NCBI GenBank assembly: GCA_964483355.1
Contig: CAZABK010000003.1
Coordinates: 14,584 to 78,583, forward strand
Source: an uncultured Verrucomicrobiota bacterium
Lineage (GTDB): Bacteria > Verrucomicrobiota > Kiritimatiellia > Kiritimatiellales > Pontiellaceae
Direction of reading: 5' to 3'
Length of the DNA: 64,000 nt
Shown here: positions 18,651-50,172 of the stretch, one piece after another
Layout of the letters: every line of letters begins with the position of its first letter
Position numbering within the stretch: position 1 is the first letter of the stretch
Notes under the pieces: model-generated
Seen by the model: the letters and a program-made list of their open reading frames with translations, nothing else
Told to the model about the DNA's origin: nothing
Databases searched by the model: none
Translations under genes and position numbers: made by a program

Positions 18651-18671
18651 AGGTTGCTCCTTTCGTTTGTG

Positions 18672-22678: not shown

Positions 22679-23061
22679 AAAATCCTGAAAATTTCAAAAA
22701 TCGGCGCTGAATATGCCCTGCTCCGCCCGCCTTGGCAAAAAAATACCGTTATAGATTCCCGAGCGGACGGATGATCGCAACAGTCCCGTCATCTGGATTT
22801 ATCTCGCGCAAAGTCGCAAAGAACGCCAAGGCTAGCAATATGTTGCCTTTGAAGGGACAGCATACCTTCCGTCCACGGACGATGAGGCCATCGCCCGCCA
22901 GAAAACACCACTGATGTTCCTTGTTCTTTTTTGCAAGACTTCTATAATGTGACTCCATAAATTAAATCTTTTTGAAGGGTGTTATGCGGACGTCCGTATA
23001 TCACCTGTTATTAAAGTGCGTCCGCCTAACCACTGTTCGAAAAAATTACAAAAGGGATCAA

Positions 23062-24302
23062 ATGAAGATACGAAGTTATGGTGCGCTGGTGGCAGTCTGG
23101 TTGGTATCATCGGCAACCGGGCAAACTGCAATTCCCGGCACGACAGAAACCGCACCACTGCAAAGATCTTTGAATTGGAGGAATTATTCATTGAGCAACA
23201 GTACAGCTTCCTTCCCATTGCACCACCATCGGAAGAAATTTATCTCCACTCCAACAGTCAGGTTGTTCCGGTGGCGTTCGACAATTTTCCAAAGCGTTTC
23301 CAGAAAAGAATTATGGCGGAGTTTGATAAATCCACCGGAATCCCGCTTTACTCCATAACCATTGAAGAAGATCCGGTCAGTCGCCGAACCATTTTCAGGA
23401 ATGCGTTCGGCGTTGTTATTTTCGAGTTAGAGCCTGAAGAAAACTACAATCCTTTTGCGTGGCCGGAATGGAAATTCAGTCTCGCCGAAGGCGAAGCCCT
23501 TGATCCTTTTACCCAATGGCTTTACGACCCGGCGCATATCGCCGTTTCGTTTACACTGATTGATTCGATTTATTACGAAGCCTATCTTGCGGAAAAAGAA
23601 GCCCTGCGTCTGGCAGCTGCATCAATGCAGCCCATGATGATGACCATGTCGGCACCGCTGATAAAACCCATTGCATCCATGACCACCGGAAGCAACGGGT
23701 TGGTTACACTCAACATTTCATTGCTGGACACTTACGGCGGTTATGTTGAAATTTTTGACCGTGACTGGCTCCAGTATTGGGATGATTGGGAACTCGCCAA
23801 GAGCTGGCTTCCAACCTATGGAAACCAGCAGGTTTCATGGCAGGACAATTCATCGTCAGGAAAGAACCATAGATTCTACTACATCGGCGACGCGACCGAT
23901 GACCCCGAAGGTGATGGCTTCTCAACATTACGCGAGGAACTGCCCACTGGAACAGACCCTGCGGTTTTCAATATGATCGATGAAGATAATGATGGAATGC
24001 ATGACTGGTGGGAAGCCAAGCTTTTCGGAGGAACCAACCAAGTCGGTTCAGGCGATTTTGATGGTGACGGTTTGCTCAACAATGAAGAAATAGTCTATGT
24101 ATCATCAGGTTCCGGCTCCCCGTCAGTCACCATGAGCAGCGACCCGTCCCTGTTTGATACAGACGCAGACGGGATGGATGATGGGTTTGAAGAATCTTAC
24201 TACTGGCTGGATCCTATGGATTCTTCCGATGCAGGAAGCGACCGGGACGGGGACAATCTCACGAATAAATATCTCACCATCCGTGGCACGCTCTACCGTT
24301 AG
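23062..24302 (+). pseudogene. Frameshifted, truncated exported protein with DxDxDG calcium-binding (TSP3-like) repeats
   Basis: Signal peptide (MKIRSYGALVAVWLVSSATG) is in frame 1 and the body in frame 3 (shift near 23130-23165); repeats DEDNDG, DFDGDG, DTDADG, DRDGDN; the ORF stops abruptly within a repeat. Confidence 0.65.
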
Positions 24303-24376: not shown

Positions 24377-24539
24377 ACTCCGAGTTGTCCCGCCATCTAA
24401 TCGCGCCGCAGCTTTAACGAAGGAGGAAACCCGGCGACGGCGGATCCGTCATTTCCAACGAGTCAGGTCGAAGCCTCGGCCAAGACTGATGCTTGGAAAA
24501 CCTGCCCCCATCAGCGAAGGTTCATCTGTTATCCCTTGT

Positions 24540-26309
24540 TTATTTGTTAAAACCCTTGTGGTTCATGAATTCCCAAATGCGATCCATCCAGGTGTAGCTG
24601 CCCGTGCCCGGAGCGGCCTTTCTCTGAAAGCAGTGCCCGCGTTTGACAAGCGTATGGAGATCGGACTGGATTCCCATCCGGCGGAGCTGCTCCCAGCATT
24701 TTACCGAATTCATCGCCGCCCAGCCGTCCGCATCGCCGTGAATGAACAGCATCGGACAGCTCGCAAGATCAAACGAAAATTCAGGAACGAGCCGCGCATC
24801 GTCTTCGTTGCCGCCCGTCTTATTGTGGAAGTCCGAGCCGTCCGTGAGCGCGTACGCCGGATAGATGGCGATCGCCCACTGTGCGTTGCAGGGAATGTTG
24901 TCCAGGTCGTCGATCGGCCAATAGGAACGATGCTTCGAGCTGGTTGCGCCCATGAGCGTCAGGTGGCCGCCGGCCGAGGAACCCATGATGCCGATGCGGT
25001 CAGGATCGAGTCCCTTCGCCGCAGCCTCGCTGCGGACAATTCGAACGGCGCGCTGCAGATCCTGCCACGCCGTCGTGTGCTTCGCCAGCCCGCCCAGCGG
25101 ACGCGGCGTGCGGTATTTCATTGTCACGACCGCCATGCCCTTTTCGTTCAGGTAACGCCGTGTCGGCGCGACTTCAAATCCGTCCGGAGCGTTGCCTTTG
25201 TAAGCGCCGCCCGAGTAGATGATCTGGATTGCCTTTGTCTTGAGTTCTTTCGGCATGTGCCACTCGAGATACGGCAGGCACTGGTTCGTCTGCACATCCG
25301 GCATTTTGCCTTCCGGCCAAACCGGTTCTTTGCTGTACTCGCCTCGCGCATCGTCGCTTGCATAGCGGGACATCAGATCGACTTCTTCACCGAGGCGCCC
25401 GTCAAAATTCATCTGGCGGAAGAATTCAGCGATACGATCCATCCAATGATCATAGGCGGTGCCGTCTTCGCCTTTGTTCGGATCACCCATAAAACCGTGA
25501 GGACGATCCGCGAAGAGATGGAGCTCGGCCGGAATTTTCATTCGACGGAGCTGGCGGTAGATCTGCGTGGATCCATTCGGCGAATATCTGTCCGCTCCGC
25601 CGTGGAAGAGAGCCATCGGACACGTCTTCTCGTCGAACCTGAACACGTCCGAGAGCTGAACATCAATCGCATCGCCATCGCGGGTATTGGGCCCGGTGAG
25701 TCCGTCTGTGAGCGCATAGGCCGTGTAGACCGGCACCGCCCAGTTGACGTGACACGGAAGCCGGTCAAGGTCATCGACCGGCTCGTACGCCGGCGTGAGC
25801 GAACTCGTCGCAAGCAGGACCGTCAAATGCGATCCTGCGGAAAAGCCGAGCACGCCGATCTTCTCCGGATCAAAGCCGCGCTTTTCAGCATCGTTGCGTA
25901 CGAGGCGGACGGCGCGCTGCCCGTCCTCCCACGCGCTCTGATAAATGGGCAGCCCCTGAGGACGCGGCGTACGGTAGGTAAGGCTCACGCAGACGAACCC
26001 AAGCTCGGAAAACTTTTTTGCAACACGGTCAATCCACACCCCGTCGCAGCAACTCTGATAACCGCCACCGGAAATGAGCAGCATGCATCCGCCGTTTTTC
26101 TCCGCAGGCGGCTCGTACCAATCGAGATGCGGCATCCTATTATCCGCAGCAACAAATCCCGGAGCTTTCACCTCCTGAGTGGTCGCCGCGATCTGTTGGG
26201 GCTGAAAATCAGGGATCTTTCCTTCCGGCCACAGCGCGATCCGCTCCCCGGCAATAGCCAGACCGGCGACCAGCCACCCGCACCCGAACATAACTATTTT
26301 TTTCGTCAT
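24540..26309 (-). CDS. Exported tandem double alpha/beta-hydrolase (carbohydrate esterase-like)
   Basis: Two homologous domains, each with ISGGGY/YSGGAY, YRTPRP, GxSAG (GFSAG, GSSAG), HG.AD and a His motif; signal peptide from ATG 26309. Confidence 0.85.
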   Translation of the reverse strand: MTKKIVMFGCGWLVAGLAIAGERIALWPEGKIPDFQPQQIAATTQEVKAPGFVAADNRMPHLDWYEPPAEKNGGCMLLISGGGYQSCCDGVWIDRVAKKFSELGFVCVSLTYRTPRPQGLPIYQSAWEDGQRAVRLVRNDAEKRGFDPEKIGVLGFSAGSHLTVLLATSSLTPAYEPVDDLDRLPCHVNWAVPVYTAYALTDGLTGPNTRDGDAIDVQLSDVFRFDEKTCPMALFHGGADRYSPNGSTQIYRQLRRMKIPAELHLFADRPHGFMGDPNKGEDGTAYDHWMDRIAEFFRQMNFDGRLGEEVDLMSRYASDDARGEYSKEPVWPEGKMPDVQTNQCLPYLEWHMPKELKTKAIQIIYSGGAYKGNAPDGFEVAPTRRYLNEKGMAVVTMKYRTPRPLGGLAKHTTAWQDLQRAVRIVRSEAAAKGLDPDRIGIMGSSAGGHLTLMGATSSKHRSYWPIDDLDNIPCNAQWAIAIYPAYALTDGSDFHNKTGGNEDDARLVPEFSFDLASCPMLFIHGDADGWAAMNSVKCWEQLRRMGIQSDLHTLVKRGHCFQRKAAPGTGSYTWMDRIWEFMNHKGFNK

Positions 26310-26413
26310 ATCGCTTCCTCTATTTTCCTCATCGCAATAAAGCAACGATCATAAAACAAACCTGTTCCCCGCAAAAAACAGCTAAAGCCCTTAGGCGCCC
26401 TTCGTGTGTGCTT

Positions 26414-27466: not shown

Positions 27467-28270
27467 TTATTTTTCCAACCTTTGGAACTTTTGGGTCAAC
27501 CGACGGACTTCGTTGATGACCAGCGGACAAGCCGGTTCGATAATCCCATGGCCGTAGCCGTCGAGTTCCATGATGCGAGTGTCCGGGTGCCCCGCTACAC
27601 GCATCATGCGCATCATGTAGGCGTTTTCCTCGTAGCGGCCGAGCATTTCCATTTCGCGGTCGCCGGTAATCAGCAGCAGCGGCGGTGCGTCGGGCCGCAC
27701 ATGAAAGAGCGGCGCCATCTCATCCACAATCGGCTGCGTACGGCTGATCCCGCGTTCGGCACGGACTGTCAGGTGAGTAATGGTATGCCCGCTGAGCGGA
27801 ATCAGCCCGGCGAGGCAATCGGCATCGATTCCGAATGCAGCCAGATAGGATTTATCCAGCCCCACCATACTGGCGAGGTAGCCGCCGGCCGAGTGCCCGG
27901 AGAGAAAAACCAGGTTTGAATTGCCGCCGTACTGCTCAATATGCTTGAGCACCCAGGCGACTGCGGCGGCGGCATCCTCGACATAGCCGGGGCTTTGCAC
28001 CTTCGGGTTCAGTCGATAATTCACGCTGACCACCGCGACCTTACGGTTCAGCAAACCGGGCGGAAAATGCTTGTTGCCATTCCTCAGTCCGCCGCCGTGG
28101 AACCACACGACCGTCGGGAAGTCCGTTACGCCGTCGGGAAGCCAGATATCGAGTTTGCAGCGCTCCACGGCATACGGATCGTCCGACTCGCGATACGACA
28201 GGTTGGAATGGATTGTCTGCGCGGACAACCCACCAGCACACAACAGGATCAGTAAAATAATTCGTTTCAT
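27467..28270 (-). CDS. Exported alpha/beta-hydrolase (carboxylesterase)
   Basis: FHGGGL, GHSAGG, TGDRE and YGHG motifs; signal peptide. Confidence 0.88.
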   Translation of the reverse strand: MKRIILLILLCAGGLSAQTIHSNLSYRESDDPYAVERCKLDIWLPDGVTDFPTVVWFHGGGLRNGNKHFPPGLLNRKVAVVSVNYRLNPKVQSPGYVEDAAAAVAWVLKHIEQYGGNSNLVFLSGHSAGGYLASMVGLDKSYLAAFGIDADCLAGLIPLSGHTITHLTVRAERGISRTQPIVDEMAPLFHVRPDAPPLLLITGDREMEMLGRYEENAYMMRMMRVAGHPDTRIMELDGYGHGIIEPACPLVINEVRRLTQKFQRLEK

Positions 28271-28286
28271 TACAAGTACTCCGATT

Positions 28287-31200
28287 TTACGGAATCGTCA
28301 CCGTGACGGTTTCGGAAGCCGTTCCGACTCCGGCGAGGTTGGCTCCGGCAACACAGTAATAATACGTTTGCCCCGACACGACATCTAAATCCGTATACGA
28401 AGAAACGGCGACCTCTCCGGTCAACACTTCGAACGGTCCCGATGCGGACAACGCGCGCTTTACCTGATAGGTACAGGCATCCGCATCCGCAGTCCAGTCC
28501 AGCAGCACACTGCCGGAGCTGCCGTCTGCCGTCAGGCCTGACACCGCGTCAGGAACAGAACAATCGCCGTACCAGAACGGCCCGTGATCGGAAAAGCTCC
28601 AGAGAACGCCGTCCAGGCTGACTCCCAGCCCCCACACGCGCCCGTTTCCAAACACATCGTCGGTCATCAATGAAGTCCAGGTTTCGCCGGCATCCGAGCT
28701 TTTAAACACCCACGATCCGGTTCCGCTGATCAGACCCAGTTCCCCGGCATAAATCACATTGTCATCCTGAGGATCTATACAAACCTGCAGGAGATCGAGC
28801 CGGCCCAGGGAATCCGCAACAAACCCATCCGATTCGTCCTTGAAGTCCAGCGTGTCGTTCGGGATGTCATAGATATACAGTCCGCCGTCATGTCCGATGT
28901 ACAGTTTGTCGCCGGCGGCGTTCAGAACCACCGATCCGATAAAGCTTGAAGCAAAATATCCGTTGTACCCGAGGTCTTTAAGCACCGTGTAATTCAGGCC
29001 GTTCTCCGTCGAGCGATAAATCCGATCCCCGTCAAACAGATAGACGGTATCTTCGTCATCCGGGTCCACGGCAACAATCTGCTCGCAGTTGGTGGCCCCG
29101 ATGTCGGTCCAGGTTGTTCCGCCATCCAGGCTGAATACATCGCCGGCATAGATATAATCGGAATTCTGCTCGGGAATAATGACCGCAGCCTTCTGTTTTC
29201 CCTGTGTTCCATCGACAATCTCAAAGTTTAACCCGCCATCCGTACTCTTCTGGAGCACCCCGTCCAATCGCGGGGAATGATAGCCGATTCCCGCCCAGAC
29301 CGTGGACGTGCCGGAGTTACCGGAGTCATTCACAATCACAGCGCCCAGCGCATCGACCTTTCCATAGTTTACCGCCGACGCGCGCTCAAAGGACTGCCCG
29401 CCGTCAAAGGTCACCATGACTCCATAATCCACCGAATTAATCAGGAAATGATTCGGATCCATCTCATCGACAATCAGCCTGAGCCCGCGGAACCCGCCAT
29501 AGTTCTCATTGCTCCAGACCCAGTTTTCACAGGCATTCGTCGTCATAAACATGGAGCCGTAATTAAATGCCTTCATCCAGGTGTCCTGTTTGACCGGATG
29601 CGGTGCGAAGGCCAGCGGCGGCGTCAGGTTGTGGCTGTTCGAGGTGAAGGCAAAGCGGTCTTCTGCATCCCGGTTGTTCTTCAGCTCCCAGGTGTCGCCG
29701 CCATCGGTACTGAAATACGGACAACGCCCCTCCCACGACCAGGCAGCTCCGAGCATGACATGGTCCGGCTGAAGAGGATGAACCTTTATGTCATAGAAAT
29801 AGGCACCGGCATTGATATTCGAAAGAACTGGCAGGCCGGATGCCGACGTGATGTCGACCCAGCTATTGGTTCCGGTCTTCCGATAAACCTGCTGGTCATC
29901 CACGATGGCAAACACCCGGCCGGTTGTTGAAGAATCCGCACACAGCGCGGTGATATAGAGGTCTCCATCAAGACCGTCATTCAACGTGCTGAATGTCACC
30001 CCGCCGTCTTCACTTTTAAAAAGCCCCTGCTCCGTTCCTACATACAGCAGGCTGTTGTTTTCCGGATGAACCTGAACGGCCGTCACCATGGAATTGCTGA
30101 TAGTTGACGTTCCGACCTGAGCAAAAGAATCCCCGCCATCCATACTGGCAAACAGACCCTCTGATGAACCCACGAAGATCATTTCGCACAGTCCGGAACT
30201 GCTGCTGTATGAATCCGGCACAACCGCCACGAGGTTCATGGTCAGGTCCCTGGGCATTCCCTGCAAATTAAAATGTTGGGAAAACGCCCAGGTTTCGCCG
30301 TTGTCTTCACTGATATAAAGGCCCTTGGTCGAAATATCGATCGCCCCGTTTGCATCAGCCAGGGCATACAGCCGATCCTCGGCAACCGGGTCGACCGCCA
30401 GTCCGCGGATAAAATACCCTTCAATTCCATCCATCTTTGACGTCCAGGATGCACCGCCATCATCGCTGCGATAGACCCCGGCAGTATCGATTCCCATAAA
30501 CACGGTCCGGTAATTATTTTTCGGAGAAAAGACAATCACCCGCGGCACCTGTGACCCGTCACCGCCAATCTCTGCGCGATCCCGTTCCCCGGAGTTGCGC
30601 ACCATCATGTTATGCCAGGAAGACACCGGTTCCCCCAGACAGGCAATATTGTCCACAAAAAGCTGCCCGACTTTGGTCAGATAATCCGAATCAATCAGCG
30701 ACAGCCGAAAGGTCACACTGGCTCCGGCAACCAGAACGGTCTCGGGAAGAGACGTCAGGGAAACATCGTAATCCGCATATCCCGCAATGGTCGAGTTCGG
30801 CGAAAACGTCCCGGTTGCAAAGTTGTTCGTCAGATCCAGGTCACCGCCCACAACACTCAGGCTGTATCCGTCGCTGCCTCCGGAATACTGCCGCCAGGCA
30901 TCAAAGCAGAACCAGGTCAGCTCATAACTGTCTGAGGTGTTGTTCTCAACAGTTATATCAATGTGCGATGTGTTGTTTGTATTTTTGGTCCAAAAGGCCC
31001 CATCGTCTCCGGCAGTCCCGGTTGTTGCACCGGTGCCCAACGATCCGAATGTTCCATCCTGAGATCCATACCCAGGTGTCGTAAGCTTCCAGTCATCGCC
31101 GAGAGTCCCGTGATCGCTCCAGACCTGATTCCCCTCAAAACCATCCGCCTCAACCGTTGCATTTTTGTTGCTGTAGCTTGTAGTAAGTGCACATTTATCG

Positions 31201-31295
31201 AAGCCCACTAAAACTGTATCGGCCGGAGCCTCAACGCCGGACAGCATAAATAAAAGCCCTGCAAAAAAAGGGAACATGCCGCATTTCTCCTTCAT
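28287..31295 (-). CDS. Exported multidomain protein: unassigned ~190-aa domain + Asp-box (BNR) beta-propellers + C-terminal Fn3-like domain
   Basis: About nine Asp-boxes (YRSDDGGASW, ISEDNGETW, STDGGDTW, KSSDAGETW...); C-terminal L.W......Y.VKR...Y.D...YYY Fn3 pattern; signal peptide. Confidence 0.8.
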   Translation of the reverse strand: MKEKCGMFPFFAGLLFMLSGVEAPADTVLVGFDKCALTTSYSNKNATVEADGFEGNQVWSDHGTLGDDWKLTTPGYGSQDGTFGSLGTGATTGTAGDDGAFWTKNTNNTSHIDITVENNTSDSYELTWFCFDAWRQYSGGSDGYSLSVVGGDLDLTNNFATGTFSPNSTIAGYADYDVSLTSLPETVLVAGASVTFRLSLIDSDYLTKVGQLFVDNIACLGEPVSSWHNMMVRNSGERDRAEIGGDGSQVPRVIVFSPKNNYRTVFMGIDTAGVYRSDDGGASWTSKMDGIEGYFIRGLAVDPVAEDRLYALADANGAIDISTKGLYISEDNGETWAFSQHFNLQGMPRDLTMNLVAVVPDSYSSSSGLCEMIFVGSSEGLFASMDGGDSFAQVGTSTISNSMVTAVQVHPENNSLLYVGTEQGLFKSEDGGVTFSTLNDGLDGDLYITALCADSSTTGRVFAIVDDQQVYRKTGTNSWVDITSASGLPVLSNINAGAYFYDIKVHPLQPDHVMLGAAWSWEGRCPYFSTDGGDTWELKNNRDAEDRFAFTSNSHNLTPPLAFAPHPVKQDTWMKAFNYGSMFMTTNACENWVWSNENYGGFRGLRLIVDEMDPNHFLINSVDYGVMVTFDGGQSFERASAVNYGKVDALGAVIVNDSGNSGTSTVWAGIGYHSPRLDGVLQKSTDGGLNFEIVDGTQGKQKAAVIIPEQNSDYIYAGDVFSLDGGTTWTDIGATNCEQIVAVDPDDEDTVYLFDGDRIYRSTENGLNYTVLKDLGYNGYFASSFIGSVVLNAAGDKLYIGHDGGLYIYDIPNDTLDFKDESDGFVADSLGRLDLLQVCIDPQDDNVIYAGELGLISGTGSWVFKSSDAGETWTSLMTDDVFGNGRVWGLGVSLDGVLWSFSDHGPFWYGDCSVPDAVSGLTADGSSGSVLLDWTADADACTYQVKRALSASGPFEVLTGEVAVSSYTDLDVVSGQTYYYCVAGANLAGVGTASETVTVTIP

Positions 31296-31362
31296 GGTTT
31301 TGTATTAAGACCAGAATCTTATTCAACCGGGCACTCACTCCTCATGCCCGACTTCCTGCAAC

Positions 31363-33801
31363 TCACTTCACGGCAATCATCACCGATTCAGACACAGGGC
31401 CCTCTCCCGCCAGGTTGGCGGCGGCAACCGCGTAATATACGCGTTGATCTTTTACCGGGTGCGAATCAACAAACGAATGTCCATTGACGCCGCCCTGAAT
31501 AACATCGAAAGGACCGTCCGGAGAAAGAGCCCGTTTCACCTGATAGGTGTATGCGCCCTCCACAGGAGTCCAGCTGAGTCCCGGCAGCCCCTGTTCAACA
31601 TCGACCTTCAGCCCGGTAACCGTTGCGGGCACGTCCATCTGTCCGTACCAGAAGGGACTGTGATCCGTAAACGCCCAGAGAACGCCATGCAGATCCATAC
31701 CCAGGCCCCAAATGCGGCGGTTCCCGAACACATCATCCGTCATCATCGACGTCCAGCTTTGCCCGCGATCCGTGCTCTTAAACACCCAGCTGGCGGTGCC
31801 GCCGATCAGGCTGAATTCACCAGCATAAAGAACGTCGGGGTTGTTCCGATCGATCAGGATCGTTGTGATATCCAGCCGTCCGGAATGGTCCCGAATCAAC
31901 CCGTCTTTTTCCGTTTTGAACTCAAGCACACCGGAAACCATGTCGTATACAAAGATTCCCCCATCGTGCCCGATTATAAATGTTTTCCCATCGGGGGTCA
32001 GAACCGCCTCCCTGAATTCATGTTTAAACGGGCTGGTGCATTCCAGATCCTTCAGCAGTTCACAGGTTCGACCGTGATCGTGCGAAATAAACAGTTTGGC
32101 ACCATTGTAGAGATAGACGGTCCCCTTCTTATCCGGAGCGGCAGCGACAATCTGCGCCCCGTTCTGTGCCCGGACCTGTGTCTATCTCTGCCCGCCGTCA
32201 AGACTGAACACATCACCGGCATAAATGATATCGGCATCCAGCGGATGCATAAATACAGCCGCCTTCTGATTGGCTTCCGTTCCGGGAATTTTTTTGAAGT
32301 TCCGCCCTCCGTCCCGGCTGATCTGAAGCACACCGCACAGCCTTGGGTGATGCTTGCCGATCCCTTCAATGACTGTAGCTGTTTGCGGGCTGTCGGCACC
32401 CGGGAGGATAATTCCGTGCAAGGCATCTACCTTTCCGCACCGCTCTGCTTTGGCGCGTTCAAAGGATTGCCCGCCGTCAAACGTCACCAGCGGTCCCAAA
32501 TCGATCGTGTTAATCATAAAATGATTGGCATCATCCGGGTTGACCACCAGCTTCATCCCGCGCAGCCCGCCATAATTGTCGTTGCTCCATTCCCAGCTTT
32601 CTCCGGCATTTTCGGTGCGGAAAATTGAACCGAAGTTAAAGGCTTTCACCCAGGCATCCGGATCCGCCGGATGCGGCGCAAACGCCAGCGGCGGGAAAAT
32701 ATACCTGTCGGCCTCTTTATGACGGGATCCAGCATTAAACCGTTCTGCCGGCGTTTTATGATCCCGGCGCACCCAGGTTTTTCCGTAATCCTCACTGTAA
32801 TGCGGTGATCCGGCGGGATAGTTCCACTGAATGCCCAGCATCACCCGATTCCCCGCAGCCGGGTGGACCCGAACGGCATACATGCGCCCCCGTGCATTTT
32901 TGCCCAGAACCGGACTGTCTGAAGGAATCAGATTTTCCCAGGAGCCGCCGCCGTCCTGCACGTACAGCTCCTTCTTATTCACGATCACATAAACCCGCTC
33001 CGAGTCAGGGTCAACAGCCAGATCAATCACCTGTGCCGGCTGCGGCAGCCCGTCATTGCAAAGAACAAACGTTTTGCCCCGATCCGCACTGCGATAGACC
33101 CCCTTTTCGGTTCCCGCATAAACAACCCGGTTATCCGAAGGCAGAATCTCGACATCCATAATCACCTGGTTTCCAAGCACGCCCGATACCCGGGCAAACG
33201 AGGCGGCTCCATTTGTGCTGGCGAACAGGCCGGCGCCGCTTCCAACCAGCAGATCACTGCAGCGCTTCAGGTCCTTAGAATACGAGTCCGGAAAAATCTT
33301 AACCAGGTTCAGGTTTCCATCGCCGGGAAGCCCCTGAAGGTTCAGTTTTTGAACCATTTCCCACTGCTCGCCCTTATTAACCGACCGATAAAGTCCCTTC
33401 CCCTTGCTATCAAATTTGGGATGGGCATCCGCGATGGCATAAACACACTCAGGAGTGGCCGGGTCGATCGCAAGGCCTTTAATAAAATAGGCTTCAATGC
33501 CGGCCATCTTTGAGGTCCACGAACGCCCGCCGTCATCGCTGCGGTAAACACCGGCGGTATCCACGCCCATATACACCGTGTTGCCGTCCGGGGTATATTC
33601 CAATACCCGGGGCACCTGTGTCCCGTCACCACCCTGCAACTGCTGATCGCGCTCCCAGGCATCACGCACCATCATGTTATGCCACCGGGCCTCCTCCGCA
33701 GTTTCTTCAACAACCGGAAGCCTGCAACCCGCAGTTCCTCCGATAGCCAACAACATGACACCCGTAAGCCAAACCCTGCCCGCACCAACCTTGAACCCCA
33801 T
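31363..33801 (-). pseudogene. Asp-box beta-propeller + Fn3 lipoprotein paralog interrupted by one in-frame TAG
   Basis: ORFs 32182..33801 and 31363..31941 are in the same frame; manual translation is open across the gap except TAG at 32184-32182, where the paralog has Trp; TAGC lipobox. Confidence 0.8.
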
Positions 33802-33837
33802 AGCAAAACTCCTGTATCAGTTTTTATCCTGCACCAA

Positions 33838-35133
33838 CTACAGGGTTTGCCCCGCAGCCATCCCCATAATTGCGATATTATCAATATTTAAACGTCCTCT
33901 GGAGGAAGGATCTCGATCCGTCACCCTTAAACGAAATGTCACGCTCTCGCCCGCTGCCAATATCGTTTCCGGCAGTTCCGAAAGGTAAATATCAAAATCT
34001 TCATAGTTACTGGACGATGCAGATTTTCCCATTGACGTAATATCGCCGGTCGCAAAATTTTCCACAGTCTTCCAATCGCCGGCAACAACACTTAATGTAT
34101 AGCCATCGCTCCCCACAGCATATTCCCGGAACGCATCAAAGCAGAAGCAGGTCAACTCGTAGCTCGTCGCAGTTTTGTTATCGATCCGGATATCCATATA
34201 GCTGTCATCACCTTTGTTCGCAGTCCAAAACGCCCCGTCATTCCCGGCGCTTCCTGTCGTTGCACCGTCCGCTAAGCTTCCGAAACTGCCATCCGTCGAA
34301 CCGCCGGAATGTCTTGTGAAACCCCATTCATCACCCAGCTCGGTGTCATAGCTCAACGTCTGCAGGCCATCAAAACCAGGAGCTTTAATACGCGGCGACT
34401 TCGTTGGGTACGTTGACGTAATGACTATTTTATCAAACCCAAGCAGAACAGAACCCGACTTGGGAGTGTACTCAACGCCAAGAATGGCAATATTATCGAC
34501 AAACAATTGCCCGTCCGCTGCCGGAGCGCTATCCCGCATAAGAAGTCGGAATGTAGCTTCTTCACCGGCAGCCAGAACGTTATCGGGAAGGCCCGCCAAA
34601 GAAACATCATAATTCACATACCCCGCCACAGATGAGTTTTGCTTAAAAGTCCCTGTTGCAAAGTCGTCAACCAGCGCCAGATCCCCGGCCACAACACTCA
34701 CGCTGTATCCCTCACAGCCCTTAAGCCACTGCCGCCAGGCATCAAAACAGAAATGGGTCAGCTCATAACTGTCTGAACTGCCATTCTGAACAGTGATATC
34801 CATGTACGATGCATTCGTTGAATTTGCAGTCCAAAAACCACCATCATCTCCCGCAGATCCAGTTGTTGCTCCGGTGGCCAACGATCCGAACGTCCCATCT
34901 TGAGATCCCCAACCCGGGCCTGTCAGTTTCCAGTCATCACCCAGCGCTCCGTTATCGCTCCACTGCTGAACCCCGTCAAATCCAGCCAGCTCAACCATTG
35001 CCGTACGGTTGCTGTAGGTTTTGGTAATTGAACATTTATCAAACCCAACCAACACCTGATCCGCAACAGCTCCGGCCGCAAACAAACCCGCAACCACAGC
35101 ACCAATCCATCTTTTCATTTTTTCCGAACTCAT
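33838..35133 (-). CDS. Exported protein of two tandem copies of the unassigned ~190-aa domain
   Basis: Signal peptide, then VLVGFDK...DNIAILG and VLLGFDK...DNIAIMG; RBS GGAG upstream of ATG 35133. Confidence 0.75.
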   Translation of the reverse strand: MSSEKMKRWIGAVVAGLFAAGAVADQVLVGFDKCSITKTYSNRTAMVELAGFDGVQQWSDNGALGDDWKLTGPGWGSQDGTFGSLATGATTGSAGDDGGFWTANSTNASYMDITVQNGSSDSYELTHFCFDAWRQWLKGCEGYSVSVVAGDLALVDDFATGTFKQNSSVAGYVNYDVSLAGLPDNVLAAGEEATFRLLMRDSAPAADGQLFVDNIAILGVEYTPKSGSVLLGFDKIVITSTYPTKSPRIKAPGFDGLQTLSYDTELGDEWGFTRHSGGSTDGSFGSLADGATTGSAGNDGAFWTANKGDDSYMDIRIDNKTATSYELTCFCFDAFREYAVGSDGYTLSVVAGDWKTVENFATGDITSMGKSASSSNYEDFDIYLSELPETILAAGESVTFRLRVTDRDPSSRGRLNIDNIAIMGMAAGQTL

Positions 35134-35339
35134 TCCTACTCCTATATCCATATGCCCCGCACGGTCTCGCCGCGACACAACTCTTGATTCTTTTCCAGGC
35201 ACCGATCTGCCCATTTAAAGCCGGCGACGTCAGACATTCCGCCCGAACCGGTCAGCTCCCAAAGCCCGCAGTCTTCACCGCGGTCATAAGGCATTCTTCA
35301 CACCTTCTTTGGGAACTGCTTCAAATCCGTCCTATCCGC

Positions 35340-36902
35340 TCAGTACTGCAACCCGTAGAATTTTTGCGTATCGCCTGCTTCCACGTAAATGATCACATTC
35401 GTACCGTCCGACGATGAATAATTCAGGTTGGTTGTCAGGAAGGCATTCACTCCGTCGTCAGAATGAGCAACCGCAGACCAAGCGGACTCATCAAGGGACG
35501 TCTTGGAGAGCAGCGTAAAGTTCGTCAAACTCCCGACGACATCAATCGTCAGTTTGATCTGATTCCCTAAAACCGGCTCAAGGCTGACAAAAGCGGCTTC
35601 CGGATCGGGTTCGGGGGGGGCGGTTTGATCCGTCACCATTCCCAGAACGGCAATATTATCGATAAACAACTGTCCGCTCGAAGACGGCGCGCTATCCACC
35701 ATCTTAAGACGGAACACTGCTTCCTCTCCGGGAGTCAGAATATTATCGGCAAGATCCGTCAGAGAAACATCATAGTCGTAATATCCCCCAATCGACGAAT
35801 TTTGCGCAAAAGACCCTGTTGCAAAGTCGTCAACCAGAGCCAGATCCCCGGCCACAACACTCACGCTGTACCCCTCACAGCCTGCAGGCCACTGCCGCCA
35901 GGCATCAAAACAGAAACTGGTTAACTCATAGTTGGTCACCGTGTTATTCTGAATCGTAATATCCATGTACGAGGTATTATATTCATTGTCCGTCCAAAAG
36001 CCTCCATCGTCCCCGGCAGTCCCGGTTGTTGCTCCGGATCCCAGAGAGCCGAATGTCCCATCCTTGGAACCATAACTCTCGCCCGTAATATTCCACTCAT
36101 CGCCCAGCGTTCCGGTATCGCTCCAGACCTGATTTCCCTCAAATCCGGCGGCCTCAACATTTGCGTTTTTGTTGCTGTAGCTTGTCGTAACCGCCCCTTT
36201 ATCGAAACCAACCAAAACGTCTCCCGCCTCCGGAACATACTCAACGCCGAGAACTGCAATATTATCGATAAATAATTGTCCATTTTCAGCCGGCGCACTG
36301 TCCACCATCTGAAGCCGGAACACCGCTTCTTCACCGGACGCCAGAACCGTGTCGGAAAGGTTCGTTAAAGAAACATCATAATCGAAGTATCCACCAATCG
36401 ACGAATTTTGCGTAAACGTCCCGGTTGCAAAGTCATCAACCAACTCCAAATCTCCGGCCACAATACTCACGCTGTAACCCTCAGCGCCTTTAGCCCACTG
36501 CCGCCAGGCATCAAAACAGAAACTGGTCAGCTTATAAGTGCCGGCACCGGTATTCTGAATCGTAATATCCATGTATGAGGTATTATTTGCATTGTCTGTC
36601 CAAAAACCCCCATCATCTCCGGCAGAGTTGGTCGTTGCCCCGGTGCCCAGGGAACCGAACGTCCCGTCCTTGGAACCCCAACTCTCTCCCGTGATTCTCC
36701 AGTCATCACCCAGTGTTCCGTTATCGCTCCAGACCTGATTGCCTTCAAATCCGGCGGCCTCAACATTTGCGTTTTTGTTGCTGTAGCTGCCGGTGAGCGC
36801 CCCCTTATCGAAGCCCACCAGCACATCATCCGCCATCGCTCCCAGCGCAAACATCCCTGAGACCGCAGCCACTATCCACCCGCACTTCTTTCCTGTTCTC
36901 AT
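35340..36902 (-). CDS. Exported protein: two copies of the unassigned domain + PEPDPE linker + ~85-aa C-terminal domain
   Basis: Signal peptide MRTGKK...AMA; two VLVGFDK...DNIAVLG units. Confidence 0.78.
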   Translation of the reverse strand: MRTGKKCGWIVAAVSGMFALGAMADDVLVGFDKGALTGSYSNKNANVEAAGFEGNQVWSDNGTLGDDWRITGESWGSKDGTFGSLGTGATTNSAGDDGGFWTDNANNTSYMDITIQNTGAGTYKLTSFCFDAWRQWAKGAEGYSVSIVAGDLELVDDFATGTFTQNSSIGGYFDYDVSLTNLSDTVLASGEEAVFRLQMVDSAPAENGQLFIDNIAVLGVEYVPEAGDVLVGFDKGAVTTSYSNKNANVEAAGFEGNQVWSDTGTLGDEWNITGESYGSKDGTFGSLGSGATTGTAGDDGGFWTDNEYNTSYMDITIQNNTVTNYELTSFCFDAWRQWPAGCEGYSVSVVAGDLALVDDFATGSFAQNSSIGGYYDYDVSLTDLADNILTPGEEAVFRLKMVDSAPSSSGQLFIDNIAVLGMVTDQTAPPEPDPEAAFVSLEPVLGNQIKLTIDVVGSLTNFTLLSKTSLDESAWSAVAHSDDGVNAFLTTNLNYSSSDGTNVIIYVEAGDTQKFYGLQY

Positions 36903-36931
36903 GCCTGTTCTCCTTTGTCGATTAACACTCA

Positions 36932-36977
36932 GTTGTTACGTAACAACAATTACCGCTAAAAATTTATTTGTCAACGC
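36932..36977 (-). promoter_or_regulatory. Operator palindrome downstream of a TTGACA promoter
   Basis: Perfect 16-bp palindrome GTTGTTACGTAACAAC at 36932-36947; TTGACA on the minus strand upstream. Confidence 0.7.
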
Positions 36978-37206
36978 CTATTCCACCGAAAGCGTTCACC
37001 TGGAATTCACCACCCTGCACCCAAAGTCCGTTCGCCAGCAAAGCAACCGCCGTTTCAAAAATAAACAGAATCCACGGAACCCAACCGGACGAGGTATACG
37101 GCGCGCCCAGCCACCTCACCTTATCGTTGACGTACTTAACTTACACCTACCGGCCTGCTCTAAACACAACCAAGGCAACCGAAAGTTGTCTGCGCGCCGA
37201 CATCAC

Positions 37207-37950
37207 TTACTTACGCATCCAAATGGACCGGACAAAAAGAATTCCAAACATGGAAAACCCCAAAAACCCCAACGTAGCGGGCTCCGGTATTGCTTCTCCC
37301 AAAACCGCAATATTATCAAGAAACAACTGTCCGTTCGAAGATGTCACGGTATCTACCATCTGAAGCCGGAATACAACTTCTTCACCCGAAGCCAGAACGT
37401 TATCGGAAAGACCCGCCAGATAAACATCATAATCGGAATAGGCTGCAATCTTCGAATTTTGAGTAAAAGTCCCGGTTGCAAAACCGTCAACAAGATCCAA
37501 ATCACCGGCCACAATGCTCACACTGTACCCCTCACAGCCCCCTAGCCACTGTCGCCAGGCATCAAAGCAAAAATAGGTTAATTCATAACTCTCTGAACTG
37601 TTGTTTTGAATCGTAATATCCATGAACGATGTATTATTTGCATTTGCAGTCCAATAGCCTCCATCATCACCCGCAGTCCCGGTTGTTGCTCCGGTGGCCA
37701 GCGAGCCGAACGTTCCATCCTTGGAACCATAACTCTCACCCGTGATATTCCACTCATCCCCCAGCGTCCCGGTATCGCTCCATTGCTGAACACCCTCAAA
37801 TCCGGCGGCCTCAACCGTTGCATTTTTATTACTATACAGGTAGGTGAGCGCCCCCTTATCGAAGCCCACCAGCACATCTGCTACTGCTCCCAGCGTAAAC
37901 ATGCCGAAGACTGCAGCCATCATCCACCCGCATTTCTTTCCTGCTCTCAT
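37207..37950 (-). CDS. PEP-CTERM protein carrying one copy of the unassigned domain
   Basis: C-terminal IPEPATLGFLGFSMFGILFVRSIWMRK (PEP, TM, basic tail); signal peptide from ATG 37950. Confidence 0.88.
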   Translation of the reverse strand: MRAGKKCGWMMAAVFGMFTLGAVADVLVGFDKGALTYLYSNKNATVEAAGFEGVQQWSDTGTLGDEWNITGESYGSKDGTFGSLATGATTGTAGDDGGYWTANANNTSFMDITIQNNSSESYELTYFCFDAWRQWLGGCEGYSVSIVAGDLDLVDGFATGTFTQNSKIAAYSDYDVYLAGLSDNVLASGEEVVFRLQMVDTVTSSNGQLFLDNIAVLGEAIPEPATLGFLGFSMFGILFVRSIWMRK

Positions 37951-37983: not shown

Positions 37984-38030
37984 TTTGTTTCGTAACAAAA
38001 AAACCTATCATCAAAAAACGATTTGTCAAC
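37984..38030 (-). promoter_or_regulatory. Operator copy + promoter
   Basis: TTTGTTTCGTAACAAA at 37984-37999 with minus-strand TTGACA upstream. Confidence 0.6.
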
Positions 38031-38091: not shown

Positions 38092-39000
38092 TCAGTTGTC
38101 TGCAGGAAATGCCTTCTTCAGCACCCCCAATCCCTGCAGCCACTGTTTACATACATTCGGCCAGCCGGCTGTGCCGGGAACCTCCTGCGCCAGCCCCAAA
38201 CCGTGCCGCCCTTTTCGATAGATATGCAGCTCGGCCGGCACGTTCGCTTCGCGCAGGGCGAGATAAAAGGCGACGCTGTTTTCCGGAAGCACCCCCCCGT
38301 CTTCGTCCGTATGAAACAGGAACGCCGGCGGCGTCTCCTTGGTGACCTGTTTTTCGTTCGACAAGCTGAACAACAACTCCTCAGAAGGATTGTCGCCAAG
38401 CAGGTTGCGCGGAGACCCCTTCTTTCTCGTATAGGGTTCACTAAATGAAATCACCGGATAGCAGAGAATCATGAAATCGGGCCTGCAGCCGAACCGCTCG
38501 ATGGGATCTTTCGCATCGGGGCTGCCTGCATCAAAGTGGGTTCCGACCGTCGACGCCAAATGCCCGCCTGCCGAGAACCCCATAATCCCGATACGGTTCG
38601 GGTCCAGTTTCAACTCCCTGGCCCGGGCTCTCACGGTTCGTATGGCTCGCTGAGCATCCTGAAGCGGGGCGGGATGCAAACACCCGCCCCGGCTCGTTCG
38701 ATACTCAAGGATGATGCCGGTCACTCCCATGGAGTTCAGCCACTCGGCAATCTCATGCCCTTCGTGTCCCATCGCCAGACCTCTGTAACCGCCACCGGGA
38801 CAAATCACGACAGCCGTGCCGTTCATGACATCCGGGTCCGGAAAGCAAATCGTTATTGCCGGCCTGTCCTGGACGGGATCATTTTCTCCTGCCCCCGGCG
38901 CACCGTCCGGCCAAAGAAGTTCCCGTGCCGACTCCCCGGCAAATGATGCACATCCGCACAGGAGCGCGCACAGCATTCCGGTTGCAATGTCAGCTTTCAT
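38092..39000 (-). CDS. Alpha/beta-hydrolase (BD-FAE/acetyl-xylan-esterase-like)
   Basis: CPGGGY, LEYR, GFSAGGH, HTDED and GRHGLG motifs. Confidence 0.88.
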   Translation of the reverse strand: MKADIATGMLCALLCGCASFAGESARELLWPDGAPGAGENDPVQDRPAITICFPDPDVMNGTAVVICPGGGYRGLAMGHEGHEIAEWLNSMGVTGIILEYRTSRGGCLHPAPLQDAQRAIRTVRARARELKLDPNRIGIMGFSAGGHLASTVGTHFDAGSPDAKDPIERFGCRPDFMILCYPVISFSEPYTRKKGSPRNLLGDNPSEELLFSLSNEKQVTKETPPAFLFHTDEDGGVLPENSVAFYLALREANVPAELHIYRKGRHGLGLAQEVPGTAGWPNVCKQWLQGLGVLKKAFPADN

Positions 39001-39013
39001 GACTCGCCCCTTT

Positions 39014-39027
39014 TAGTTCCGTAACTA
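39014..39027. promoter_or_regulatory. Operator copy
   Basis: TAGTTCCGTAACTA just upstream of the 39000 start. Confidence 0.5.
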
Positions 39028-39081: not shown

Positions 39082-42000
39082 TCAGGAATGATACTGCGAG
39101 ACCTGCGCCCACTCCGACAGCGCACCTTCTTCTCCGCATTCCAGAACCGCCTGGACGCAGTAAAAACAAGGCTCGTCCGCCCCGCCGGAAAAATCCGTAA
39201 AGACCGGCTCCGGCGACCATCCGGCAAAAACCGGCGCCTCCTGTCCCGCAGGCTTTCTGTACACATTATAATGCGAACAGTTTTCCTCCAGGTTCGGCTG
39301 CCACCGCACACGAACCGCAGACGACGTAATCCCGGTGGGATCAATCCGTGCCGCCGTTACGCCGGCCGGCTTCCCGGCGACAGAAGAATCAGATCCGATG
39401 CGCACACGGATCTTTCCTTTGCGCTGCAGATGAAGATAAACATAGGCGTCATCTTCTGAACAGGAACTGATTCCAAACCCGTTCCGCAGCCTGAACTGAT
39501 TGTTTTCAAACACAGCTTCCTGGTTGAACTGCACCCGGGTGTTTTCTGAACGCTTGGGGATTCCCAGAACAACCGGCTCACCGGTTAACAGGGCCACGGT
39601 AAATGCAGAGGTTCCCGGATAATTTACAATATCAGCATGCAATACTCCGCCCTCCCGGTACACCGCAGCCGGCAGCGTGCACTCTGGATGCAATGGATCC
39701 AGCTCGCCGTCTTTCTGCACACGGATAACCGGCAGCGCCTGCGGATCAACAAATGATTTTCCGGAAGAATCCAACGCTGCGCCGTTGAGGGCTTCCCCGT
39801 TTTGGTCCGTCCAAAGATCGTTATAAATCACCAGCGAAGAGGACTCATCAACGGCCTTGAACCGAAGCTCCGCACGGCCGACAGCATCCACGGCGCGCTG
39901 AGCGTCAACGCGACAGCCCAGCTCCATAAAGGGACGCCATGTCTTCAGATAAGATGCTTCAGATGCGGTTTCATAGCCTTCGTCTTCCGGCAATTGACGA
40001 TAGTAACTCTCCGGATCGCCGGGAATATGGAAGCTTTTCTCAGCAACCGGCGCGTACGGATTATTCAGCACGAGGTTTCTGCGCACAAACCGTCCGCCGA
40101 AATATTCATCCATTGCCGTTCCATACAACGTGCTTTGACGGGACTGGAAGCGATGATGAATCGTGATGCAGGCCGAAGAGCCCTCGGCAAACACAACCTT
40201 GAAATGATTCTGCCGTCCGGCAAGAGCGTGTTCGCGAAGATCAACACCAACCGTGTTTCCCGCGGAAACGGAGCATGCGCCGGACACCGGACGGCCGTTC
40301 AAATACACCTCTTCAATCGCGATGTCCGCCGAGCCTGCATTGCGAATCTCGAACCGGGAAACCTCATGAGTGCCGTCCGGCACATCAAAAAAGCCTTCCA
40401 TATCCGCAACAGGTGCGGCCTCAGGAACAGACGCGGCATCCAATACTTTGCGACAGCCCGCCAGCGGCCCCGTATAATCAACGCCGTCTTCAAACCTGAA
40501 GCCGGCGGAGCCGGCCTTCAGCAAGGTTCCGGCGGCGATGCCCGGAGACATCAGTCGCGACCCGGCGCTGCGGTTTTCATAGTCGCCCTGCCATGCGTAA
40601 TGCGGAATCCACGCCTCCCCGTACGATTCCGGGTCATCGGTGTTCATCCGGATGGTTGAGGCAACCATCATGACCGCCCGGCGCACCTTTTCGCGCAAAT
40701 AAAGATCCGACGGATCATGCTGCAGGATGCCGGCCGAGGTATAAATGTCCTGGAAGTATTCGCCATCAGTCGATCCCGTGGCCGTATCCAGACTTTCATC
40801 GGTCTGATACTGGGAACAGTCCGAGCGGGGATATTCAAAATTCACGTCAAGGAATTCATCCCCGGCCTTTTCGCCGATGTAACGCATGTAGTTGGAAGCC
40901 CGGCGCGATGCCAGCTGAATCCACTGCTCATCGCCGGTCACTTCATACAACCGGATCAACCCCTCCGCCCGGTAATGAATGGCATCCCGGGAACGGGCCC
41001 AGCTGCGGATATGCATGGACGTATAGTAGCCGTACAGCTTTGCCGCATCGGCCTCGCCGGCCAAACGATCCGGCACAGCCACACCGCCATACACGGGATG
41101 TTCCATGTAGCCGACCCCGCGTTCATACAGCGCTTCATGCAGCAGCTCCGGGCGGCCGGACTGGCGATACGCCTCCACAACCGCCGCATGCATCGTTTCC
41201 TCGCATCCGCAGACCGTAATGGTCGGAAGCTCGGATTTGTACTGATGCGAAATCGCCGGCATCCCGCCCATCTTTGTGTAGACGTTCTGGGAGTGCAGAT
41301 ATTTGTCGACAAAGGTCAGGAGCGCAGTGCGAACCTCGTCATCATCCAGAACATGCAGCAGCATCGCGCATGCTCCGTAAAAATAGTTTCCGCACCCGCA
41401 GTATTCGAAATAGCCGATGCGCTTTTCCGGGGAAAAACGGTCCAGATAACGGGTCGAAAGCACGTAGCGCTTCACGCCTTCCAGCACCGCGGAATCCACG
41501 TCGCGGCGCAGCGCAATCTCAATCAGCGACAGCAACGGATACGGGCGGATCCAGAAAACCTCTCCTCCCGCAAAAAAGGTTTTCGCGAACGAATCATAAA
41601 AGAAGAGCGGAAAGCTTCCCCGCTCGGACTGAAGTCCCGGAGCCGCCAGCCGGTTCAACACCCACTGGCAGGCCGCATCAACCGGATTCCCCGAACGCGC
41701 CGGCTCGTCCCGGCATACAGTAACCGTTTCCGTTTTTACGAATTCATCATCATAGAAAATGCGGTATTCGTACTCCTTCTCAACCATTCCGTAAGGGAAC
41801 GGACAGGAGAGGCTGACTTCCCAACGACCGTCCGGCTCCGGCGTCGCCGTGTAAACGGGAATCACCCGGGACGTCTGGATATAAAGCACATCATCCGGCG
41901 AAGCCGTTTCCAGCCGAAATGCTGTATTATGCCCGAATCCTTCCAGAGGCAGTTTAAACCGATGCATCCGGCCGCCGGCAAGCGCACCCAGATCATGGTC

Positions 42001-46730: not shown

Positions 46731-46781
46731 TAGTTTCGTAACAAGATGCGACACATCACCGGATCTGTCAAATCTATTTAC
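46731..46781 (-). promoter_or_regulatory. Operator copy + promoter
   Basis: TAGTTTCGTAACAA at 46731-46744 with minus-strand TTGACA upstream. Confidence 0.6.
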
Positions 46782-49140: not shown

Positions 49141-50172
49141 ATGAAACAGATCAATGTCCGACAAATCGCCGCCGAAACCGGCGTATCCATCGCCACCATT
49201 TCACGTGTCATCAACGGGAAAAGCGGCGTCGGCGAAGAAAAACGGAAACTGGTGCATGCCGCCCTCCTGAAACACAACTACGTGCTGAACTCCCATCTTG
49301 CCAAAGAGCGCAAAATTGCGCTTCTGTGCGGCACATCCCACGGAGAATACGTGGGAGAACTCTTCAATGGAATTCATGAATACGCGCGCAAAAACGCCAT
49401 CAACACAGCCCTGATCTTTAATAATGAATCCCTGAAAATGACCGCCTTCGAACAGCTGCGCGACCAGCAGTGCTCCGGCGTCATCGTCATCGCCCCCAAC
49501 CGCTTCCGCAATGAATTCGACACACTGGCCGGCTCCGAGCTGCCGGTCATCCTGATCGACGAAACCGTTCGCAAGGACGGACTGGGCTTCATCAATCACG
49601 ACGCGGCAAAAGGCTCCAAAGCCGCAGCAGAACATCTGTTGGAACTGGGACACAAAAACATCGGATATATCCGCTACGGAATTCGCACAGCCAATCACAC
49701 CAACCGCTTCAAGGCCTACAAAACCGTACTCAAAAAAGCCGGCATGGACATTCCGGATCACTGGCACGTTGAAACCGATGCAGACAAACCATCTCTGGAA
49801 GCCGCATATCAAGCCGCATCACAGCTCATGGAACAGGCCCCGGAACTCACCGCCGTCATGACCACCAACGACTCGCTGGCCATCGGCGCAATGAAAGCCA
49901 TCATCGACTCCGGAAAAAGAGTCCCAGAAGACATTTCCATCGTCGGCTACGACAACTACGACTTTTCGGAATACACCAACCCGGCACTGACGACCGTTCA
50001 TCATCCGATCCGCGAAATCGGCTTCCAGGCCGCCGAAGCCATCAACACCTACTTTCAGGATCCCAAACACACAGCCCTGCCGCAAAAAAGCCTCCCGACC
50101 CAACTGATCATCCGCGACTCAACCTGCCCGCCCCGGAAACAAAAACCGGCCACGCGACGAAAAGGTTACTGA
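49141..50172 (+). CDS. LacI-family transcriptional regulator
   Basis: IAAETGVSIATISRVING HTH; NDSLAIG..KA, DISIVGYD and LTTV..P motifs. Confidence 0.95.
   Translation: MKQINVRQIAAETGVSIATISRVINGKSGVGEEKRKLVHAALLKHNYVLNSHLAKERKIALLCGTSHGEYVGELFNGIHEYARKNAINTALIFNNESLKMTAFEQLRDQQCSGVIVIAPNRFRNEFDTLAGSELPVILIDETVRKDGLGFINHDAAKGSKAAAEHLLELGHKNIGYIRYGIRTANHTNRFKAYKTVLKKAGMDIPDHWHVETDADKPSLEAAYQAASQLMEQAPELTAVMTTNDSLAIGAMKAIIDSGKRVPEDISIVGYDNYDFSEYTNPALTTVHHPIREIGFQAAEAINTYFQDPKHTALPQKSLPTQLIIRDSTCPPRKQKPATRRKGY

Follow-up and report, generated by a model that had tools for sequence, protein, structure and literature searches.

We identified six copies of a domain of 193-196 amino acids, here called X, in four genes of a 64,000-nucleotide stretch of DNA (the window; contig CAZABK010000003.1, positions 14,584 to 78,583) from the metagenome-assembled genome (MAG) of an uncultured, Pontiella-like member of the Verrucomicrobiota (GCA_964483355.1); window coordinates are used throughout. 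We favour, with moderate confidence, the reading that X is a new family of glycan-binding domains resembling carbohydrate-binding modules (CBMs). In a substrate-regulated degradation locus, this family would serve at the cell envelope, in tandem pairs that are soluble or carry a tail, and as part of an enzyme. The CBM-like reading is drawn from the fold class that the predicted X structure shares with CBMs, from the fusion of X to glycoside hydrolases (GHs) and a sulfatase, and from the co-location of X genes with GH genes and with further X genes. The newness of the family is judged against Pfam-A, NCBIfam and the Protein Data Bank (PDB), very recent CBM families of CAZy lying outside this comparison. 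We infer the glycan binding, the surface exposure and the ligand of X, as well as the operon structure beyond the two operators described below.

Six copies of X in four secreted proteins

All long open reading frames (ORFs) between 28287 and 37998 lie on the minus strand, among them the four X-bearing genes A, C, D and E. Gene E (37207..37950) codes for 247 residues from an ATG at 37950, its ORF being extendable in the ORF list to a TTG at 37998, and consists of a signal peptide, one X copy (E1, 37297..37875, 193 residues) and a PEP-CTERM signal. Gene D (35340..36902, 520 residues) carries a signal peptide, two X copies (D1, 36246..36824, and D2, 35640..36218) and a 99-residue C-terminal tail. 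In gene C (33838..35133, 431 residues from an ATG at 35133), the signal peptide is followed by a tandem X pair without an anchor (C1, 34477..35055, and C2, 33862..34449, 196 residues). Gene A (28287..31277, 996 residues) combines a signal peptide, one X copy (A1, 30633..31214, 194 residues), a GH74-like double Asp-box propeller and an Fn3 domain, and gene B between C and A encodes a paralogous propeller protein that lacks X. An initial annotation, made from the letters of the window alone, had reported the six copies and these same four contexts, including the X-less paralog; our coordinates agree with it within a few bases.

All four X proteins begin with a Sec-type signal peptide whose cleavage site lies 1-4 residues ahead of X (contexts ...GAVA/D, ...GAMA/DD, ...GAVA/DQ and ...GVEA/PADT, the slash marking the cut); that of protein E, as read from the sequence, is MRAGKKCGWMMAAVFGMFTLGAVA/D. 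Since the signal peptides end so close to X, the mature proteins would start with X.

The six copies share 50-82% of their residues in pairwise comparisons, with 73 invariant columns and with C2 as the most divergent copy (50-53% identity). Their nucleotide identity is 56-82%, their synonymous divergence (dS) is at least 0.68, and dN/dS ranges from 0.07 to 0.31. Given this dS and this DNA identity, the copies are old paralogs under purifying selection rather than near-identical repeats, and the same figures rule out recent duplication or gene conversion. The long near-identical DNA stretches of the initial annotation therefore do not exist as such, although the 18-mer quoted in their support is real: it occurs in four exact copies and one with a single mismatch, against 0.01 expected, and codes for the motif FDAWRQ. 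In the phylogenetic tree, the six copies form a single clade with support of 100/99, and in these phylogenetic terms they are a lineage-specific expansion.

X belongs to no catalogued family and is patchily distributed

Scanning the four window proteins against Pfam-A and NCBIfam returned only BNR/Sortilin-Vps10, fn3 and PEP-CTERM matches, and no family for X. The same scan applied singly to 45 diverse X members found no family either, only scattered sub-threshold matches to immunoglobulin-like domains of unknown function, and none of the CBM models in Pfam (among them CBM_6, CBM35, CBM_4_9, CBM_11 and F5_F8_type_C) matched any of the 45 at E <= 1. Sequence-profile searches of the PDB with X gave chance-level matches (CFA/III pilin, E 0.023; gamma-adaptin ear, E 0.15), and no PDB chain scored better than E 0.15 against the 45-member set. 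X thus remains without an assigned family in Pfam-A, NCBIfam or PDB sequences, as the initial annotation had stated. The hidden Markov model search that it proposed also found relatives in other Verrucomicrobiota genomes, so that the domain is new in the sense of being uncatalogued, but it is not private to this locus.

A profile built from the six copies recovered 309 clusters at E <= 1e-3 and 108 at E <= 1e-10 among 1.84 billion representatives at 50% identity. The best 150 of the 309 clusters contain two main groups, namely, proteins of 230-260 residues with the order signal peptide, X and PEP-CTERM, and large proteins with 2-4 X copies and either a beta-rich C-terminal domain (ending ...FYRV or ...FIRL) or a dockerin-like segment. 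Of all partners of X, PEP-CTERM is the most frequent. Small relatives in a collection of 5.8 billion proteins are named 'hypothetical protein' or 'PEP-CTERM sorting domain-containing protein', and their precomputed domains are PF07589 or dockerin only. X matches occur in 14 of the 54 genomes of a family-level set, and large Pontiella-group genomes contain as many as 28 copies each; at the phylum level, 19 of 301 genomes and 12 of 148 genera have matches. As judged from these matches, the family is patchy across Kiritimatiellia and other Verrucomicrobiota.

The whole assembly (2.98 Mb in 129 contigs) holds no further close copy beyond the six. Two distant X-like copies were detected with the family profile on another contig (C5), at 7598-8164 (E 1.8e-7) and 18643-19056 (E 2.3e-6), in open frames of 1948 and 1689 residues. 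A word-indexed homolog search with protein E alone returned the window's own proteins only, and a search for related loci with protein D as query found no relative in a collection of genome contigs. FtsZ from the window shares 74% identity with its Pontiella sulfatireligans counterpart, and its other matches are to Pontiella, Pontiellaceae and Kiritimatiellales, which makes the host a Pontiella-like member of the Kiritimatiellales. We found nothing on X in the literature on PEP-CTERM or CBMs in Pontiella and Kiritimatiellales. PEP-CTERM-anchored deployment of such a domain in degradation loci of the Planctomycetes-Verrucomicrobia-Chlamydiae (PVC) group appears to be without description in the literature searched, the fold and the kind of function being known.

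The predicted fold of X falls in the jelly-roll class of many CBMs

Structure prediction with AlphaFold2 from the six window copies alone reached a pLDDT of 42 and was discarded; an alignment of 45 sequences was needed, which gave a model with a pLDDT of 93.6 and a pTM of 0.91. The beta-sandwich proposed in the initial annotation is borne out by this model, which has eleven strands and confidently places a long loop rich in Gly, Ser, Thr and Asp (residues 33-73). X is a discrete module, with sharp boundaries in the six copies and in the tandem repeats, and with a confident model.

Searching the PDB with this model using Foldseek, we obtained 25 matches at E <= 1e-3, most of them CBMs and most of the top ones with a probability of 1.00. 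The neighbours include domain III of Cry4Ba, CBM35, CBM6, CBM11, CBM32, CBM36, CBM61 and CBM4, as well as the non-CBM MAM domain, the gingipain K1/K2 adhesin domains and the ephrin-receptor ligand-binding domain. For the predicted model, template modelling (TM) scores normalised by the target are 0.52-0.61 for CBM35, CBM6 and CBM36, and those normalised by the query fall below 0.5 as X is the longer domain. The structural comparison that had been proposed for X thus finds its nearest folds mostly among carbohydrate-binding modules, all of them remote, and the model suggests that X belongs to the galactose-binding-domain-like jelly-roll class, without a close solved relative.

Three residues, G57, D105 and D187, are invariant across the 45 members, and nine others (D53, N91, L99, F104, G124, L153, L161, G164 and N188) are at least 90% conserved. 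The family signature can be written as [AG]G[WF]D ... GSxDGTFG ... N ... FxFDAWR ... GDL ... DYxDxDxxLxxLxDxxLxxGExxxFRL ... DNxA. Structural Ca2+ sites occur in many CBMs, and the conserved Asp/Asn set could form such a site in X. There is no conserved cysteine among the 45 members. The six window copies have isoelectric points of 4.05-4.34 and contain 21-25 aromatic residues each. This acidity suggests a neutral epitope or Ca2+-mediated binding.

Fusions and loci in relatives

X is contiguous with carbohydrate-active modules both in the window, where protein A carries the GH74-like propeller, and in relatives, where it is joined to GH5, GH39 and sulfatase domains. Among 19 large relatives examined, we found fusions to GH5 (two), GH39 (two), a sulfatase, BNR_4, CBM_4_9 (two) and LamG_3 with an M12 peptidase, and no Pfam domain at all in nine.

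We compared five loci encoding an X-PEP-CTERM protein, i.e., those on two metagenome contigs and in Pontiella desulfatans (PDESU_01095), a Verrucomicrobiaceae MAG and Haloferula chungangensis. Sulfatases and GHs (GH27/36, GH88, GH3, GH39, GH78, GH10 and GH2) flank the anchored X gene in all five, and further X-bearing genes lie beside it in all five. Two of the five have a major facilitator superfamily (MFS) transporter and a LacI/GntR regulator, and full-length homologs of the A propeller are encoded in two (E 1e-37, 8e-47 and 9e-19). The fusions, the co-location with the propeller and the pattern of an anchored X with large X proteins are more specific evidence than the sulfatase neighbours.

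In the three distant loci (P. desulfatans, the Verrucomicrobiaceae MAG and H. chungangensis), the X domains of enzymes and other large proteins form a subfamily separate from the anchored one. These large-protein X domains are 50-74% identical across classes, compared with only 37-45% for the anchored X domains. The loci of the Verrucomicrobiaceae MAG and H. chungangensis have a sulfatase-GH10 pair in common. As the large-protein X domains are more alike across classes than the anchored ones, and in view of this common gene pair, the comparison suggests lateral spread of a locus module among the three.

Anchors and tails of the X proteins

Protein E ends in a PEP-CTERM signal (IPEPATLGFLGFSMFGILFVRSIWMRK, 37210..37293, minus strand) with the PEP motif, a hydrophobic helix and a basic tail all present; PF07589 matches it with 19.6 bits (E 0.00098), the cut-off being 20.7. 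An exosortase is encoded elsewhere in the genome (PF09721, 181.6 bits, contig C40), together with about 23 PEP-CTERM-like ORFs by pattern. The tail of protein D (35343..35639, minus strand, 99 residues ending ...FYGLQY) matches no Pfam family, and the genome encodes three further proteins with this tail domain (IYVEAGDTQKFYGLQY), on contigs C33, C48 and C77; in all four, at most two residues separate it from the stop. Of the three others, two consist of a signal peptide, two tandem unassigned beta-rich domains and the tail, and the third ORF runs off its contig. Because it recurs at the extreme C-terminus, the D tail looks like a dedicated terminal module, possibly a new one for sorting, anchoring or oligomerisation.

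The propeller proteins A and B

The propeller of protein A (28551..30632, minus strand) matches Sortilin-Vps10 with 74 bits and BNR, and it also matches GH74 in profile searches: a profile built from A, B and two homologs detected the GH74 xyloglucanases 2cn2, 2ebs and 4lgn with E from 3.5e-22 to 2.5e-18, and a single-sequence search with the A propeller returned no GH74 chain. The Fn3 domain of A (28299..28550, minus strand) has a weak fn3 match and resembles the Fn3-like protein 3mpc (E 4.7e-8).

Gene B (31363..33801, minus strand) encodes an Asp-box propeller and an Fn3 domain, is 48.5% identical to A over 808 aligned columns, and has an N-terminus (...LAIGGTAGC) that, from its sequence, resembles a lipoprotein signal with a lipobox. 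It is interrupted by an in-frame TAG at 32182..32184, aligned to a Trp of A, and is otherwise one reading frame. The locus was found in a single public run, a seawater metagenome DNA run, and in no RNA run. The Logan contig of this run reads TGG at the position of the stop and AGC in place of the preceding AGA, which restores the canonical Asp-box SLDGGQSW in B; the assembly of the public run also breaks at 32150-32171. Since the public run reads TGG, the evidence points to a strain variant or an assembly artefact of the MAG, and at least some of the population probably has a functional B. The TGG weakens the idea that B is a dead pseudogene.

The locus and its LacI-type operators

The X genes are flanked by genes for two BD-FAE esterases (27467-28270 and 38092-39000), a sulfatase, a GH130 enzyme, an MFS sugar transporter, a GH78 alpha-L-rhamnosidase and a LacI-family regulator. 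The last of these (49141..50172) is divergent, on the plus strand, and is a candidate repressor of the locus. No SusC/D-type genes are found among the window neighbours. A 1101-residue protein encoded at 39082-42387, between the esterase and the sulfatase, has no Pfam family at E <= 0.001 and is possibly a novel enzyme. Two plus-strand genes just upstream of the cluster (23016-24302, 428 residues, and 24489-26354, 621 residues) also match no Pfam family.

The operator core GTTACGTAAC occurs six times in the window, against 0.47 expected. Two of the matches lie in LacI-type operators of X genes, namely, TTGTTACGTAACAA at 36933..36946, which is 33 bp upstream of D and follows a TTGACA and a -10-like GGTAAT, and TTGTTACGAAACAA at 37985..37998, which is 37 bp upstream of the ATG of E and follows a TTGACA. 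The others are at 39016-39025, 46733-46742, 49029-49038 and 54555-54564. The distance from the palindrome to the gene start downstream was measured for D, E, the MFS gene and the esterase at 39000, and is 16-37 bp in these four; the sites are consistent with a regulon of the LacI-family gene at 49141-50172. The initial annotation had placed all forms of X under one operator; such a sequence does precede D and E, but none was found before C, B or A. Since these three lack one, D, C, B and A probably form one transcription unit.

The GH78 enzyme, the sulfatase and the esterases allow the speculation that the target is a sulfated, acetylated, rhamnose-containing glycan, and it is likewise speculation, based on the genes present, that the GH88, GH3, GH39 and GH78 set of P. 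desulfatans points to the same type of glycan.

Proposed function and rival explanations

Under the glycan-binding reading, one ancestral X copy would have given rise to the six in this MAG, which would keep the same binding function in four deployments within one locus controlled by LacI operators. Protein E would be tethered to the cell envelope through its PEP-CTERM signal, processed by the exosortase of the genome; D would present a tandem pair on the recurrent C-terminal tail domain, C would be a free tandem pair, and in A the domain would be attached to a GH74-like double-propeller enzyme. Bound by the X proteins both at the cell and on the enzyme, the target polysaccharide would be trimmed by the esterases, the sulfatase, GH78 and GH130, with the products taken up through the MFS transporter. 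In function, the system as a whole would be analogous to the SusE/F-type surface glycan-binding proteins encoded in Bacteroidota loci.

A bolder version of this reading, which we put forward only tentatively, is that X founds a new CBM family whose anchored, tail-borne and free tandem forms are the PVC counterpart of the Bacteroidota surface glycan-binding proteins. It is possible, if rather doubtful, that these forms build an exosortase-dependent glycan-capture layer, co-encoded and co-regulated with enzymes that carry X themselves. With similar reserve, the pairing of anchored and enzyme-borne X subfamilies in Pontiella, Verrucomicrobiaceae and Haloferula might reflect either a shared ligand specificity or direct X-X docking.

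Several observations weigh against a glycan-binding role. The TM scores of X to CBMs normalised by the query are 0.35-0.49 and the best E-value is 5.6e-5, so that these low scores and weak E-values speak to the fold class alone, and protein-binding modules (MAM, the ephrin-receptor ligand-binding domain and the gingipain adhesins) are among the structural neighbours. Half of the large X relatives examined have no recognisable catalytic domain. The strong acidity of X disfavours direct electrostatic binding of sulfated polyanions unless it is mediated by Ca2+. High sulfatase density is typical of Pontiella-like specialists for sulfated glycans, and with about 60 sulfatase genes the 2.98-Mb assembly has one in roughly every 50 kb. 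At this density, the sulfatase neighbourhood is weak evidence, and we rejected it as a strong argument.

The protein-binding neighbours also bear on a different reading, in which X is a protein-protein assembly module and the anchored protein E recruits X-bearing enzymes and tandem-X proteins through X-X association, as a scaffold without cohesins; the initial annotation had raised this as its second idea. Homophilic interactions are mediated by MAM domains, the window and all five relatives' loci encode an anchored single-X protein together with larger X proteins, and in the three distant loci an enzyme-borne subfamily is paired with a separate anchored one. However, a shared ligand specificity equally predicts the same CBM on the anchor and on the enzymes of one locus, CBMs dominate the structural neighbours, and X lacks the conserved cysteines of MAM, so we consider the scaffold unlikely. 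Somewhat less probable still is that X binds or organises the cell's own exopolymer matrix rather than a food glycan. The classical association of PEP-CTERM/exosortase substrates is with the production of exopolysaccharide, PEP-CTERM is the partner most often found with X, and the genome encodes the exosortase. In addition, Pontiella strains make sulfated glycosaminoglycan-like exopolymers (PMC7356697). Yet the genes around X are catabolic (GH78, GH130, sulfatase, esterases and an MFS importer) and are preceded by a LacI-type operator, X is fused to glycoside hydrolases, and the six loci examined have no glycosyltransferase or export genes next to X.

Finally, X might itself be a small jelly-roll enzyme, such as a polysaccharide lyase or an esterase of a new family. 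Jelly-roll folds are known from several lyase families, degradation loci contain X and X-X proteins that stand alone, and the three invariant and nine highly conserved residues, including D53, N91 and N188, could form an active or metal site. This we hold to be very improbable: the 50 best Foldseek matches include no lyase, GH16 or other catalytic jelly roll, and binding modules are typically the ones that are duplicated in tandem and joined to catalytic domains and anchors. A catalytic jelly roll of the lyase or GH16 type was rejected as a model for X on the same Foldseek result.

Kiritimatiellales and other Verrucomicrobiota are major degraders of sulfated algal polysaccharides, and X would offer a concrete, expressible candidate of 193 residues for the capture of polymers at the surface without SusC/D systems. 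It accompanies PEP-CTERM anchors as well as GH5, GH39, GH74-like and sulfatase enzymes, yet is invisible to Pfam and NCBIfam. If the glycan-binding reading is right, annotation would gain a candidate new CBM family, and a common class of 'PEP-CTERM domain-containing hypothetical proteins' would gain a function.

Comparison with known systems

Protein A resembles the GH74 xyloglucanases in its two-propeller architecture of about 700 residues and in its Asp-box repeats, but a single-sequence search finds no GH74 chain, which would make it a distant sister group.

X is predicted to share the jelly-roll fold class of CBM6, CBM35 and CBM36 (also CBM4, 11, 32 and 61), with Foldseek E-values of 1e-4 to 2e-3 and target-normalised TM scores of 0.45-0.61. 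Like these galactose-binding-like CBMs, it occurs attached to glycoside hydrolases and in some cases in tandem, and is predicted to be non-catalytic, and its final strand bears Asp/Asn (..DNIA..), as in many such modules. Unlike them, X has no sequence-profile match to Pfam CBM models or PDB chains, is longer by about 50 residues with a conserved loop of 40 residues rich in Gly, Ser, Thr and Asp (GSxDGTFG...), and has its own motifs [AG]G[WF]D, FxFDAWR and DNIA. The MAM and gingipain K1/K2 cleaved-adhesin domains, which are extracellular adhesion or oligomerisation modules, are jelly rolls of 170-190 residues that Foldseek relates to X with E 2e-4 to 8e-4 and TM scores of 0.40-0.53. However, X has no profile match to them (no PF00629), lacks the conserved cysteines of MAM and occurs in a bacterial glycan-degradation context.

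At the level of deployment, X recalls Haft's 'choice-of-anchor' families in NCBIfam, in which one secreted domain is combined with alternative C-termini (PEP-CTERM, dockerin, a beta-rich tail or none); no such model matches X, the best being choice_anch_D with E 0.003 in 2 of the 45 members, far below threshold. SusE and SusF are likewise cell-anchored, non-catalytic proteins with one to three CBM-like beta-sandwich domains, as predicted here for X, and their genes also lie inside a substrate-regulated degradation locus beside enzymes with related binding modules. In contrast to SusE and SusF, the anchor here would be PEP-CTERM/exosortase or a C-terminal tail rather than an N-terminal lipid, import would be by an MFS transporter with no SusC/SusD pair, the phylum is another one and there is no sequence relation, so the likeness of the X locus to the Sus systems is one of analogy only.

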